From contig JBJHCF010000009.1 of NCBI GenBank assembly GCA_050506795.1, positions 1 to 64,000 on the forward strand: 64,000 nucleotides of DNA. Reading direction: 5' to 3'. The position numbers were made by a program. Source of the DNA: Opitutia bacterium. Lineage in GTDB: Bacteria > Verrucomicrobiota > Verrucomicrobiia > Opitutales > T3Sed10-336. Of the stretch, positions 39,001 to 45,000 are shown piece by piece; position 1 is the first letter of the stretch, and each line of letters begins with the position of its first letter.

Positions 39001-42000
39001 CTTTTTTCCGAATCCGCACTCGATCGACGGGAAACCTGTACCTGTTTCCATAGTAACCCGTTTCGGATCAAACGTTGAAACGCCTTAACCGTGTCAATCC
39101 TCCTAACGGCCCATCCAACCGCCGTCCACCAGGAGGGTGGCGCCGTGGACGTAGGCGGCGGCAGGGGAGGCCAGGAAAACGACCGCGCCTTTGAAATCCG
39201 CGGGCTCGCCCCAGCGGCCGGCGGGGATGCGTTCGAGGATTTGACGGCTGCGGCTGGGGTCATTGCGGAGGGCTTCGGTGTTGTCGGTGGCGATATAACC
39301 GGGGGCGATGGCGTTCACATTGACGCCGTGCGCGGCCCATTCGTTGGCGAAGGCTTTGGTCAATTGCCCCACCCCGCCCTTGCTGGCGGCGTATCCGGGA
39401 ACGGTAATGCCGCCCTGGAAGGTGAGCAGCGAAGCGGTAAAAATCACCTTCCCCTCGCCTCGCGCCACCATCTCTTTACCGATTTCGCGGGTAAGGATGA
39501 ACTGGGCGTTGAGGTTGATTTCGATGATTTTGTCCCAGGACTCGTCCGGGTGCTCGGCGGCGGGCGCGCGCAGGATCGAACCCGCGTTGTTGACCAGGAT
39601 GTCGATCCGGGGATGCGCCTTCTTCACGGTCTCGATGAAGGCATGCAGCGCTGAGCGATCGGAAAAATCACAGGCATAACCGCTGAAACGGCGTCCCAGA
39701 GCGACAACCTCCCGTTCCACCTCGCTGCCGGAGGCCTCAAGCGTGGCGCTGACCCCGATAATATCGGCCCCGGCCTCCGCCAATCCCAACGCCATCGCCC
39801 TCCCGATTCCACGTCGGCACCCGGTGACCAGAGCCGTTTTTCCAACAATTTTAAAGTTGTCGATCACGCTCATAAGATTTTTCCTTCGCACGGCAGCGAC
39901 TCAGCCCGGTTCATTTCTCCGGATTGCCGCATTGTATCAGAATTTTCATGACATCTCCGCCGGTCGACATCAAATCAAGCCCTTTCTTGATATCCTCCAG
40001 GGAATAGATGTCGCTGATCAGACGATCGAGGGGCAAATCACCCGAGGCCGCGAGCTCGATGGCGCGATCGAAATCCCGGTTTTCGTAAACGCGCGCGCCG
40101 CACAAGCGCAACTCACGCCAGAAAAATTGAAAGAGGTCGATCTCCGGCGGTCGGGCGAAAATCCCCACCGCCACAATCAATCCGCGAGCCTTGGGCAAAC
40201 GGGTCATCATTTCGGCCCCGGAAGGATGACCGGTCACTTCGAAAACCACATCGGCGCCGGCGCCCTCGGACAACTCCTCCACCAGCGCCGGCAAATCGAC
40301 CGCCCGGGGGTCAACAGCCTCCAGTCCGAGCGCTTCCAGGTGTTGTACCCGGTAGGGGTTGATTTCCGACACGATCACCCGCGCCCCGTCCCGCCGCGCC
40401 ACCAGGGCAATCAGCGTTCCGATGGGACCGCCCCCCAGGACCACGGCGAGGTCGTTTGACGCCAACTCACCCAAACGAACATCGTGACAGGCCACCGCGA
40501 GGGGCTCGATGAGCGCGGCGCGGGAAAGCGACAAGGCCGCGGGCACCTTCCGCGCGGTGTGCGCCGGGACGACCCAGCGCTCCTGAAACGCGCCCGGAGT
40601 GTCGATACCGAGAAAACGCAGGTTTTCGCAAATATGATCGTGTCCCGCGCGGCAGGTCGGGCATTCGCCGCAGGGGTCAAGCGGCATTACGGTGACCCGA
40701 TCCCCGGCCGCGAAATCGCCGACCCCGTCGCCAACCGTACGCACCACCCCCGACATTTCATGCCCCATCACCTGCGCCGCCGCCACCCGCCAGTCCATTT
40801 TACCGTGGTAGATTCCGACGTCGGTACCGCAGATGCCGCAATAAGCCACTTCGATCTCGATTTCTCCGGGTCCGGGCGCAGCCGGAGCGGTATCCCCGAT
40901 TCTAATGACGTGGTTTCGTTCGTAATAAGCGGCTTTCATGGCAGGTCGATGGTAATCAAAGAAAAAGGACCCGGCAAACTCAAAACCGTCGAAGAAGCCA
41001 CCCGGGGATTTTTATTCGGCCTCTGAAGGCCGCACGAAAAACGTTTGAGATTCCTCGCTGAGAAATGCGGGGCGCAGCTCGGTCACACTCATAAGTGCGG
41101 CAAATTGTCGGTATTTCCTTACCTTATAAGAACAGCCTTGCAAACGGCTCGCATAGCGTCTAAGAACAATCCGCAATGTAACCGAAGGTTTACGCTATGC
41201 GATACAATACACCCACTATAATCACGGTACTCTTCGCCTTTGTTTTTGGCTCGATCGCGCCAGCGATCGCGGCTTACGACGCGTTTCTCAAAATCGAAGG
41301 TGTGGAGGGCGAATCAGCCGACAAAGATCACGGAGGATGGATCGATATCGAATCGTTTTCCTGGGGAATGAACCACCCCGCCTCCACCAGTGGTGGCGGC
41401 GGAGCCGGCAAAGCCAATTTCATGGAACTCGACCTGGGCAAACATCTCGACAAGGCCACGCCGCTGCTGATGCTCAGGAGCGCGGAGGGTCGACACATTC
41501 CGGAAGCGCACCTGGTTCTCCGCAAGCAGGGGGAATCCGGTCACGTTTTCTTCGAGATTGAATTGAAGAATGTGTTTGTCACCAGTGTCGGCATTCAAGG
41601 CGAGGCCGGCGACACGGTGCCCAGCGAAACCCTTTCGCTCAACTACGAGGAGATTAAAATCACCTACACGCCACAACGCGCGGATGGTGGCCCCGAGGAA
41701 CCGGTTTCCGCCGGATGGAACGTGGCGGAGAACCGGCGGGTTGATACCGATTCATGAACGAAAAGGCCATGCGCTGGCAATTACTGCTGCCGACCGTATT
41801 CGCGCTGTGGCTGACGTGCTTGAGCGCGCCGGCGGCGTACGACGCCTTTCTCAAAATCGACGGCATTGACGGCGGATCGGAAGTCGACGGCCGCGAGGGA
41901 TGGATTGACCTGTTTTCGGTTGCCCAGGGAATGAGCCGATCCATGAGCCTCGTTGCCAGGGACGGCGCTTCCAAACCGGAATTTGACGAGTTATGGCTCG

Positions 42001-45000
42001 CAAAACCGGTGGACAAAGCCACTCCACTGCTGATCGAGGCCTGCGCCGCAGGTAAACATTATCCCGAAGCCATACTCGATCTTGTCCGCGCGGATTCCGC
42101 CGCCACCCGTTTCTTCCGGGTACGGCTGGAAGACGTTTTTATCTCCCGGACGGAGATTCAGGGAAACGCATCCGATGGCCACACCCTGGAAAGCATCGGG
42201 CTGACCTATGGCTACCTGGAATGGTCCTATGTGGAATTCGATCTCACGGGCCAGGAAGTCGCGGAGCACCTGGCCTACTGGAATCTCCTGGAGAACCTGG
42301 GCGGCAGCTCGGTCATTCCCGCAAACGGCGGCAGTCCCACCGATCCGCATGATGGGTTCCGCCGCGGGGTCGCCTTTAACCTGTCGGGCCAGACCGGCGC
42401 CGGCACTTTGAGCTGGACCAGCGAAAGCGGCAAAACCTACGGAATCTACTACAGCCCCGACCTGAACGAACCGTTCGACACATTGGTGAAGACCGTACCC
42501 TCCGAAGGCGATGACACCACCTCCACAACGGTCGATCTGGTCGGCAGCCGGGGATTCTTCATCATTCGGGAAATCGATTAACCGAACACGATCAGCTTAG
42601 CCATATCGAATTCCCAACGGCTCTTCACCCGGAGGGCCATGCTCCCGTACGACCGGATTCGCCGGGAACGCGGGCATCCTGCCCGCACCGGCGGCGCGGG
42701 AGCGCCGCCCTCCACGCTGGAGGCCATGCTCCTGCCTGGCCGTAATCGTCCAGGACGGACGTCGTGACCCGTTCCCTTCGCCCCCCAACGGGCCCCCTCC
42801 GGAACGACCGCTTTCACAGATCAACCCGATATCCAGTCGGGAATTGAAGTCATTCCTGGATGTTCTCCAAGGCGAAGCACGCCGCCATATCCGAGGCCAG
42901 GCCGGCGACATCGTCGGGAGAGGTATCCCATGAGCACATGAAGCGGCAAAGCCCCGGTCCGTCCTCGCCGCCGCGGCCGATGAAATCGTAAAACCCCCAG
43001 CCTTTCGCACGCAGCGCGGCAGCGGTTTCGGCGGGAAGGTGCAGGAATACGGCGTTGGCCTGAACCGGGAAGGCCGGTGCAAGACCCGGAATTTCGGAAA
43101 TCCCTCGGGCCAGTTCCGCTGCCATTGCGTTGGCGTGCGCGGCGTGTCGCAGCCAGGCGCCGTTTTCCAAAATTCCCGCCCAGGGGGCGGCGAGGTAACG
43201 CATTTTGGATGCGAGTTGTCCGGCCTGCTTGCAGCGGTAATCGAACTCCCGGGCCAAATCCTTGCGGAAAAACACCACCGCCTCCCCCACCGCGAGACCG
43301 TTCTTGGCGCCGCCGAGACAGAGAACATCCACCCCGGCCTCCCAGGTGATCTCTCTGGGCGCCGCGCCCAGCGCCGCGATCGCATTGGCGAATCGGGCGC
43401 CGTCCATGTGCAGGCGCAGATCGAATTTCCGGCAGAGCTCGGCAATGGCCTGCAGTTCTTCCGGAGAATAGATCGTTCCCAGTTCGGTGGGCTGGGTGAC
43501 GCTGACCACGCGCGGTTTTGGATAATGGATGTCGGTACGGCGCCGCACCATGCGTTCGATGGCCGGAGGGAAGATGCGCCCGTTTTTTCCGGGAAGCAGA
43601 AGGAGCTTGGTGCCGTTGGTGAAAAATTCCGGCGCTCCGCATTCATCCGTTTCAATGTGCGCGGCGTCGTGACAGAGCACGCTGTGATAGGAGCGGCACA
43701 TGGAGGCGAGCGAAAGTGAATTGGCCGCCGTACCGTTGAAGGTGAAGAAGACATCGCAGTCGGTTTCAAAAACCTCGCGGATCAGGTCGGTGGCCTTTTG
43801 CGTCCACCGGTCATCTCCGTACCCGGGGACAAAACCCCGGTTGGCTCGCTCCATGGCCTCCCATGCCTCCGGGCAAATCCCCGCGCAATTGTCGCTGGCA
43901 AAGGTGTAACGGGTTGAATCGGATGCAGGCATAGCAGCAATAAAAGCACTATCTCTGATGGGATTGCGGCTGACGTGCAAGCGTTTATGCCAACGACGGC
44001 GTTTCACCGCGTCCGACCGCCAACGGGTGCACACGATTGAACAGAAGCCGCGTAGCGTTCCACCGGAAATCGGCGGATAATGAGCGCTAATAAGAAAAGT
44101 TCCATCCGCGCGCATCACACCATCCGCACAACCACGTTTTTCCGGCATTATCCAACCTTCTCTCAGGCAGTTTCCACCTTCAGAGATCCCCCGATAACCT
44201 CGGTGGAATCCCGCCGCGATTTCTTATGGCTTACTATTGCTCTCGGGTGCAAACGCGTCTAGCGTTCATCGACGCGATGGAGCGACGGCAGAAACTCTTT
44301 TTGGAGAAGCTCACGGCTTCCCGTATTTTTCAGGATTATAAACAGGCGTTTGAGTCGGGCACGGGGTTGCCGCTGGCGGTCACGTCCTCGCAATCCTGGG
44401 GTCTGCCCCACCGATTCGGGGAGAAGGAAAACCCGTTCTGCTCCCTCATGGCAAAGTCCAGCAAATCCTGCGCCGCCTGTCTGGAGGTGCAAAAACGTCT
44501 TTCGGACGAGTCGGAGCACGGCCCGGTGACCCTGACCTGCTTTGCCGGACTCTGTGATTCGGCGGTGCCCATCCGCATGGGTGAGGACCTGATCGGACTG
44601 CTGCAGACGGGGCAGGTATTGGTCGAAGCTCCCGACGACGCCGGATTCAACCGCATCACCCGCACCCTCATCCAATGGGGCATCGATGCCGACTTGAAAG
44701 ATCTGCGCGAAGCCTATTTCGCCACTCGCGTGCTCGAACCGGAACAGTATCGGTCGTTCGTGAACATGTTGCACATTTTCGCCGAACACCTGGCCCTGGT
44801 GGGGCACCAACTCGAGATTGCCGCAGAAAGCCGCGAAAGTCCGGTCATGCGCCGCGCAAGGGTCATTATCGAGGAAAAGCAGGCCGATGACATCACCTCG
44901 CGTGACGTGGCCAGGATGTTGAATACCAGCACCTTTTACTTCTGCAAACTGTTCAAAAAGGCCACCGGTCTGACCTTTACCGAATACCTGACCCGGGTAA

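Follow-up and report, generated by a model that had tools for sequence, protein, structure and literature searches.

Tandem leader-bearing Hcp paralogues in an Opitutia bacterium: a possible exported surface ring

Results

The A/B gene pair

The window analysed here comprises the first 64,000 nucleotides of contig JBJHCF010000009.1 from an Opitutia bacterium (assembly GCA_050506795.1). Two overlapping genes on its forward strand, found where the initial annotation had placed them, encode relatives of Hcp, a protein of type VI secretion systems (T6SS). Gene A (41197–41757) specifies a leader followed by a bare Hcp domain (186 aa) and is the putative major subunit; gene B (41754–42581) specifies a leader, an Hcp domain, a linker and an end domain (275 aa) and is the putative anchoring subunit. 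An ATGA stop/start overlap in the sequence (41754–41757) couples A to B. The predicted Sec/SPase I leader of A is 25 aa long and ends in A-I-A (41197–41271); it precedes a Cys-free Hcp domain (41272–41739) whose Gly-rich L2,3 loop (41371–41421) resembles that of Pseudomonas aeruginosa Hcp1 by alignment and loop statistics. The predicted Sec/SPase I leader of B is 27 aa long, ends in A-P-A (41754–41834) and includes a helix at residues 3–22 of the model. Behind it lie an Hcp domain (41835–42305) with a loop as long as that of A (35 in each) that is not Gly-rich, a Pro/Gly linker of low pLDDT (42306–42353), replaced in relatives by TSP3, Ig or cadherin-like spacers, and an FN3-like verrucomicrobial C-terminal end domain (42354–42578).

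Both genes are under purifying selection where tested, with dN/dS values of 0.17 for A (against G009), 0.21 for the Hcp part of B and 0.18 for its end domain. Codon-adaptation values are 0.66 for each. Neither a sigma-70 promoter nor a convincing terminator was found for the pair, and no receptor or export gene conserved beside it was detected. Across 38 tandem loci the pair had no conserved neighbour except a methyltransferase gene, which follows it in 8 genomes.

Hcp fold, loops and divergence

The Hcp homology proposed for both proteins was borne out by Pfam T6SS_HCP (E = 8.3e-34 for A, 1.6e-27 for B), with both scoring under the TIGR03344 cut-off. The closest solved relative is P. aeruginosa Hcp1 (PDB 1Y12, E = 5e-37), and an AF2 model of B (pLDDT 79) matches Hcp structures with Foldseek TMt of 0.8–0.88 and Z of 19. 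In T6SS Hcp, the L2,3 loop is the ring-stacking loop, according to PMC4650826. Its span, measured from W to K, is 36 in A proteins, 36.5 in T6SS Hcp and 29.5 in B proteins; the A loop is the longer one in 39 of 44 pairs, and the conserved loop Gly is present in 72% of A versus 41% of B proteins. A thus retains the ring-stacking loop, whereas B usually has a shorter one. By their sequences, A and B are differentiated (subfunctionalised) subunits and not plain duplicates.

B diverges faster. The phylogeny comes from quick trees, with AU tests covering 54 of the 104 genome rows that are not six-domain chains. A single origin of exported Hcp is compatible with these data (p-AU 0.21, deep branches being weakly placed), as is one clade for B (p-AU 0.69) or for A (p-AU 0.13).

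Leaders and cysteine loss

By a hydrophobicity heuristic and the class-wide pattern, rather than SignalP, both proteins carry the leaders that had been judged by eye, with n/h/c-type organization and an A-x-A site right at the Hcp N-terminus. Their cleavage is predicted to restore the canonical Hcp N-terminus. In genomes without VipB, 92 of 96 Hcp ORFs begin with a leader, versus 3 of 34 in genomes that have VipB, counts that include kin and are hence not made of independent rows; the 3 exceptions sit at non-T6SS loci. Among 95 leader-bearing Hcp proteins, 93 have an A-x-A-like site, 3 a lipobox-like motif and none a Tat motif. A contig scan with A alone as the query returned 3 loci, all with leaderless Hcp. 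Independent support for export that does not involve the T6SS comes from cysteine loss: Cys is absent from 39 of 86 exported Hcp domains versus 0 of 19 T6SS Hcp. Sec-type export without a T6SS, as first proposed, is supported by the leader contrast with VipB status and by Cys loss.

Contractile machinery in this genome and its relatives

A and B are the only Hcp proteins of the genome, which is 97.8% complete. Profile searches of it gave no match for VipB (control found), phage sheath (PF04984), the GPD/VgrG hub (PF05954), PAAR (PF05488) or IcmF/TssM (PF14331), in keeping with the earlier statement that it holds no other T6SS gene. TssB/TssC and VgrG of relatives found nothing when used as queries, and TssE-like and other cluster proteins found no membrane-complex or baseplate match. 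PF04717 gave one weak match of 23 residues inside an unrelated secreted protein, and a search for gp19-type tubes (PF06841) gave none, as did its control. The zero counts for PF04984 and PF05954 speak against a prophage tail, tailocin or eCIS. T6SS cluster proteins of four relatives, used as queries, match Hcp, the Clp ATPases, a single additional family of unnamed ORFs (C20:18788-20719, E = 4e-24) and nothing else.

The description of a lineage lacking the T6SS holds for the family, with VipB in 0 of 12 genomes; it fails for the order, where three genomes (G161, G170 and G179) have a T6SS, and for the class, where the sheath is present in 19 of 54 Hcp-positive genomes. Two genomes, G637 and G092, carry a T6SS and the exported Hcp module at separate loci, so the module is independent of the T6SS and not tied to its loss.

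Distribution of the tandem

The A-then-B pair was found in 36 of the 72 Hcp-positive Verrucomicrobiota genomes examined, and the reversed order in none. Within the family, Hcp is present in 10 of 12 genomes, in all 10 as the tandem, as the initial annotation had largely stated. In metagenomes, all 19 of 19 B loci whose contig extends far enough upstream have Hcp in that position. Among the carriers of the pair are the complete or near-complete genomes G665, G489 and G728. Leader-bearing Hcp occurs in 35 of 54 Hcp-positive genomes of the class, 33 of these 35 being without a T6SS of their own. Its spread is patchy, and in one order the exported module was found in 1 of 151 genomes.

The end domain of B

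The end domain is about 75 aa long and is common to ~110 secreted proteins of the same genome. It lies at most 8 aa from the C-terminus in 113 of 125 matches, and a leader is present on 81 of 102 carriers. Its fold is FN3-like (Z about 7), with a weak match to fn3_SORL1 under the cut-off; an Atlas search retrieved unnamed Verrucomicrobiota clusters at 0.89, which we treat as a lead only. Position and company in these sequences suggest that it is a sorting or anchoring tag. A and B had no Pfam or NCBIfam match to Por_Secre_tail and lack a PEP motif, a transmembrane helix and a basic tail; the genome has 2 exosortases. A genome search for SprA (PF14349) gave 0 matches, as did its control.

Spacers in B-type proteins are of the Ig, cadherin or TSP3 kind and would form adhesin-type stalks of up to 1100 aa, and B spans 225–1289 aa counted from the start of the fold, much as first noted. 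No toxin family was found in the 10 Hcp-bearing B-type proteins scanned. Of the earlier picture of a short Hcp followed by an Hcp fusion with variable cargo, the tandem stands; the tail is a genome-wide FN3-like end module and not specific cargo.

Related exported Hcp architectures

Chains with at least 5 Hcp domains have exactly six in 52 of 58 cases, which suggests that the ring is the selected unit. They bear RTX or planctomycete export signals together with Ig stalks, and the long loop is retained in 63% of them. In each of the 4 chains tested, the six domains grouped together in a clade of their own, and chains of six have hence arisen more than once. In a planctomycete-side sample, 57 of 251 genomes had Hcp and none had a six-domain ORF. 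Hcp with PEP-CTERM anchors also exists (P0012, G664). A second architecture joins an exported Hcp to a tagged partner lacking an Hcp domain. For one such case (G665), complex prediction with four copies of the TssD-type Hcp and two of the partner domain scored 0.01 against a mark of 0.32, which counts neither way; the partner domain model has a pLDDT of 64, gave no Foldseek match at E ≤ 0.001 and had Atlas rows below the naming bar.

Discussion

An exported, tethered Hcp ring

The reading we prefer, with a probability of about one half, is that A and B form an exported ring, or a short stack of rings, that B tethers to the cell surface and that serves as a multivalent binding head. A and B would cross the inner membrane by Sec, shed their leaders and regain the native Hcp N-terminus. 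They would then form Hcp hexamers, in which B may be the rarer component of a ring made mostly of A or may make up the last ring of a short stack. The FN3-like end domain may route or hold the assembly at the surface, and the Ig, cadherin or TSP3 spacers of relatives may serve as a stalk. No dedicated translocon was identified for the pair; a candidate exit is one of the five secretin systems. Since a ring of 8 nm would be a large load for a secretin, assembly may have to follow export. Judged from architecture, the displayed ring would bind six-fold, and its likeliest role is that of an adhesin for surfaces, polymers or cells. More broadly, many Verrucomicrobia seem to have turned Hcp into a ring or short tube at the cell surface.

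Support for this surface module comes from the fixed A-then-B order, purifying selection, leaders and Cys loss, the loop divergence of A and B and the chains of exactly six domains, and from an end domain placed at the C-terminus of leader-bearing proteins, with no toxin family in the B-type proteins scanned. Obligate Hcp heterohexamers exist according to PMC13035841, and PMC4650826 has secreted Hcp1 binding host cells. Against it stand the equal loops of A and B at this locus. B could make rings of its own, the chains of six domains come from other phyla, where their role may differ, and the second architecture shows that hetero-ring anchoring is not the sole arrangement. Of the proposed Sec-exported ring or tube scaffold, then, the export is supported by our data, and the ring or tube is a structural interpretation. 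The score of a predicted complex with two copies each of A and B deserves little weight, since two Hcp paralogues would tend to pass through likeness to solved rings.

Alternative explanations

A could instead polymerise outside the cell into a long, sheath-less hollow filament of ~9 nm on a base ring containing B, which we consider unlikely. The stacking loop and the conserved Gly within it are retained in A, which once cleaved would be extended at neither terminus. Loss of the loop in B is something that a ring at the end of a tube could afford, and the tails of non-contractile phages are tubes of this fold that have no sheath. Disc-and-neck appendages are described on Prosthecobacter debontii, with no link to Hcp in the accessible part of that report (10.1101/108191). 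However, spike, cap and tape-measure genes are absent nearby, the long loop common in six-domain chains makes it no proof of long tubes, and A and B have equal codon adaptation. A new class of appendage, a Sec-exported phage-tail-tube filament without a sheath in which A grows on a tagged B nucleator, is likewise unlikely; it would occur in more Verrucomicrobiae than the T6SS does. It is similarly doubtful that such filaments are one of several convergent uses to which exported Hcp has been put, alongside the RTX/planctomycete six-domain rings and PEP-CTERM forms.

It seems improbable to us that the rings stay in the periplasm as a scaffold, or escort a small cargo as far as a secretin, without ever reaching the surface. 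Ring size may block outer-membrane passage, A bears no tag, and the methyltransferase gene behind the pair hints at a cargo or modification pathway, but most loci have no conserved cargo gene. The tag of B, moreover, occurs on large secreted proteins, its relatives have adhesin-type stalks, and the RTX-type six-domain chains are destined for the outside.

There is a slightly smaller chance that exported rings act as decoys, which would trap, in the periplasm or capsule, the used VgrG spikes of attacking cells or those of their T6SS effectors that depend on Hcp. Cargo is held inside the ring of Hcp through its overall fit to the lumen, according to PMC8262886; patchy spread and the faster divergence of B would suit conflict genes, and nearly all carriers are without their own T6SS. 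Yet long stalks would hold the ring far from the site of effector injection, no recurrent immunity or defence genes lie nearby, and two T6SS-bearing genomes retain exported Hcp. Finally, although the T6SS in the order makes cluster decay possible, it is very improbable that A and B are orphaned or leftover hcp genes of a T6SS whose N-termini are hydrophobic by accident, an idea largely refuted by dN/dS of about 0.2, the near-universal leaders with A-x-A-like sites, gene order fixed in 36 genomes and fusion to a secretion-associated tag.

Comparison with known systems

If the tethered surface ring is confirmed, the tail-tube fold would have a third career after phage tails and injection systems. 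B would be a small, tractable reporter for whether the end domain, widespread in Verrucomicrobia, acts as a signal for secretion, and single-chain six-domain rings would offer ready-made natural asymmetric nanoring scaffolds. No paper describing this class of exported Hcp turned up in a search of the main text of mostly open-access articles.

Hcp is generally taken as a hallmark of the T6SS, and its presence or secretion as a readout of that system. With leader-bearing Hcp in 35 and the sheath in 19 of 54 class genomes, annotation by Hcp alone overcalls the T6SS here. Curli CsgA/CsgB are Sec-exported from one operon as a free major and an anchored minor subunit. A and B share this logic; the fold is unrelated, and genes for a CsgG-like pore, usher or chaperone are absent nearby. 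The T9SS C-terminal sorting domain of Bacteroidota is a small beta-sandwich that ends many unrelated leader-bearing proteins. The end domain of B is alike in place and kind, without the Por_Secre_tail match.

T6SS Hcp/TssD (PF05638; 1Y12) has the same fold and sequence family as A and B, and A keeps its loop length; A and B differ in their Sec-type leaders, fewer Cys and a genome with no sheath, spike or membrane complex. Specialised Hcp-ET proteins, as presented in PMC8262886, have C-terminal extensions of >60 aa and a plain Hcp adjacent, as B does. Unlike theirs, the extension of B is an FN3-like end module, with spacers in relatives and no toxin family, on a leader-bearing protein that needs no T6SS; an assignment of B as an Hcp-ET effector was rejected, the tail being common to ~110 proteins. 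The Bacteroides Hcp2-Hcp3 heterohexamer (PDB 9VND; PMC13035841) likewise involves adjacent diverged paralogues and a mixed-ring model, but is a cytoplasmic cargo carrier within a complete T6SS. Hcp-PEP-CTERM genes, removed by a filter in the methods of PMC8262886 and not described in the part accessible, also combine Hcp with a surface-sorting signal, whereas B uses an FN3-like end module and has the free partner A. In engineered Hcp1 fusions (PDB 4KSS, 6AP1, 7O42), an Hcp ring displays a fused domain six-fold, as proposed here; those constructs are artificial with an N-terminal passenger, while the fusion in B is natural, C-terminal and leader-bearing.

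A Tandem of Putatively Exported Hcp Genes Outside a T6SS

The two Hcp genes lie on the + strand, gene A (g01220) at 41197–41757 (186 aa) and gene B (g01221) at 41754–42581 (275 aa), joined by an ATGA overlap; both match PF05638, and a structure model of B shows the Hcp fold. At the N-terminus of each protein a few positive residues lead into a hydrophobic core and then an A-x-A site, which upholds, by a hydrophobicity heuristic, the leaders proposed for both in the initial annotation, and cleavage at these sites would, judging from sequence, yield a canonical Hcp start in each. 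Metabolic genes flank the pair, with the same flanks seen only in the same-genus genome G009. A lone T2SS-F/PilC-like gene (33923–34873, +) lies ∼6 kb upstream of A, and is near the pair in G009 as well.

The host genome (4.94 Mb, 97.8% complete) has no Hcp genes besides A and B. VipB, phage sheath, GPD, PAAR and IcmF families gave no match there, with controls detected, and T6SS-cluster proteins of four relatives matched only Hcp, Clp ATPases and one further ORF family. A weak 23-residue match to PF04717 falls within an unrelated secreted protein. The A–B feature fails T6SS membership for every machine component. Five secretins and two exosortases are encoded in the genome.

Distribution of the Tandem

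A protein from a genome of the same family bears an Opitutales name, which puts the family in that order. Within the family, Hcp is present in 10 of 12 genomes and VipB in none; in the phylum sample they occur in 21 and 15 of 301 genomes, respectively. In the class sample 54 of 401 genomes contain Hcp, and of these 19 have VipB, 35 a leader-bearing Hcp and 2 both, the VipB search having spanned only part of the Hcp-negative genomes. The earlier description of a lineage without a T6SS therefore stands for the family but not beyond it; the module does not depend on the T6SS. Leaders were found on 92/96 Hcp ORFs in VipB-negative genomes, compared with 3/34 in VipB-positive ones (130 ORFs, 72 genomes), and those three lie away from the T6SS cluster. 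The four exceptions include leaderless orphans in G622 and G629, as well as locus L087 (G714), where the leader of gene A is out of frame with the Hcp domain through a frameshift or assembly error. At the orphan loci (L088 in G622, L109 in G629; no VipB), Hcp lies downstream of genes with long Arg-rich N-termini, whose products are maybe Tat substrates.

The A-then-B order occurs in 36 genomes, 24 of them in the class sample, twice each in G653 and G665 and never reversed, bearing out the recurrence across Verrucomicrobiota claimed initially. In metagenomes, Hcp lies upstream in 19/19 B loci that have 500 nt of upstream sequence (2 shorter loci excluded). The feature is real and widespread, with a patchy occurrence (1/151 genomes in the order of G268). 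In 8 genomes the gene immediately downstream of the pair encodes a methyltransferase (MTS, DUF7059, DUF7782), at L069:5913–7409 and in G546, G637, G653, G657, G665, G701 and G724; the window locus lacks this gene.

The Tail of B

Starting from five B tails as seed, an iterative HMM settled on 114 C-terminal segments of the host genome (best reversed decoy, E 0.28); B is itself a seed and matches by construction, and the seed alone already caught an unrelated protein's tail. Of the tail-domain matches, 113/125 lie ≤8 aa from the C-terminus. Leaders are present on 81/102 of the strongest carriers versus 494/2002 background ORFs, a background that includes non-genes. The fold is FN3-like at a middling score (Z about 7), and no curated family passes the cut-off against it. 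In relatives, B ranges from 225 to 1289 aa, with TSP3, Ig or cadherin-like repeats inserted between Hcp and tail; no toxin family was found among 10 Hcp-bearing B-type proteins scanned. The same FN3-like end domain closes a secreted protein of 1375 aa (34926–39053, +) whose repeats are of Ig and beta-propeller-like type.

A Putative Surface-Tethered Assembly

We propose that A and B would be exported by Sec with cleavage of their leaders, would form rings and co-assemble, and that the tail of B may hold the assembly at the surface. The reading we favor, at a probability of about one half, is that of a tethered ring, or a short stack of rings, that would serve as a multivalent binding head. For rings of mixed Hcp subunits, Bacteroides offers a precedent (PMC13035841). 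The A–B complex prediction reported initially should be given little weight, because near relatives of a genuine partner are apt to pass the test.

According to the available part of PMC4650826, ring stacking of B. pseudomallei Hcp1 requires the L2,3 loop. This loop has a span of 36 in A (n = 52) and of 36.5 in T6SS Hcp (n = 26), compared with 29.5 in B (n = 48), after anchor gaps removed 3 A, 6 B, 2 T6SS and 11 six-domain-chain rows, and with relatives that are not independent; pair by pair, the A loop is the longer in 39/44, with 1 tie and 4 pairs in which it is the shorter. In the window pair both loops span 35, and only that of A is Gly-rich. A long A/B filament is unlikely, as native Hcp reportedly does not form tubes spontaneously. 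At 60% clustering, cysteine is lacking in 18/42 A and 21/44 B domains versus 0/19 T6SS Hcp, as expected of proteins leaving the cytoplasm. That the pair is a scaffold confined to the periplasm seems improbable, and that it is a T6SS decoy about equally so. dN/dS against G009 is 0.17 for A, 0.21 for the B Hcp domain and 0.18 for the B tail, which indicates purifying selection, and 0.07 for the neighboring dehydrogenase; a relic is very improbable.

Putatively Exported Hcp in Other Architectures

The B profile was compared with 1.84 billion representatives and the best 150 matches were listed. Of the 163 proteins collected, 72 have the leader, Hcp and tail arrangement and 58 contain at least five Hcp domains, exactly six in 52/58; since the ranking rewards high domain numbers, the search itself does not account for the limit of six. 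In each of four chains placed on a tree, the six domains group as a clade of their own (SH-aLRT 96–100), so the number six evolved repeatedly. Recurrent RTX repeats, a planctomycete leader, dockerin and Ig or cadherin stalks were found among 20 multi-domain proteins scanned. Single chains of exactly six domains with RTX or planctomycete export signals occur among P0017–P0129; P0035 has eight. Hcp also occurs with PEP-CTERM, as a leader, one or two Hcp domains and a PEP-CTERM tail (L118:1738–2535 in G664; P0012).

Six verrucomicrobial genomes have a second architecture, in which a putatively exported TssD-type Hcp stands beside a tagged partner lacking any Hcp domain. At L061, L060, L095, L099, L103 and L120 the leader-bearing Hcp adjoins this partner, which comprises a leader, a ∼100-aa beta domain, in most cases TSP3 repeats, and the end domain. 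Paired leader-bearing proteins of ∼270–280 aa at L174, L195 and L199 resemble split or doubled Hcp domains and have no end domain. At L141–L150, a leader, spacer and Hcp precede a gene in which ‘GW..L’ motifs recur and whose end is dockerin-like; Pfam gave no match for it.

Relation to Known Systems

A literature search that covered main texts and few subscription papers turned up no account of Sec-exported Hcp, of the A–B tandem or of six-domain chains. As far as the accessible text of PMC8262886 goes, Hcp genes with PEP-CTERM were removed before analysis, so the study registered such genes and then discarded them; neither ‘signal peptide’ nor ‘Verrucomicrob’ appears in its main text. PMC3482391, in the sections available, treats Hcp only within the T6SS. 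Appendages of unassigned kind on P. debontii, mentioned in the portion of 10.1101/108191 consulted, are a lead only. In a system whose description we did not find in print and whose function is putative, A and B use a known fold.
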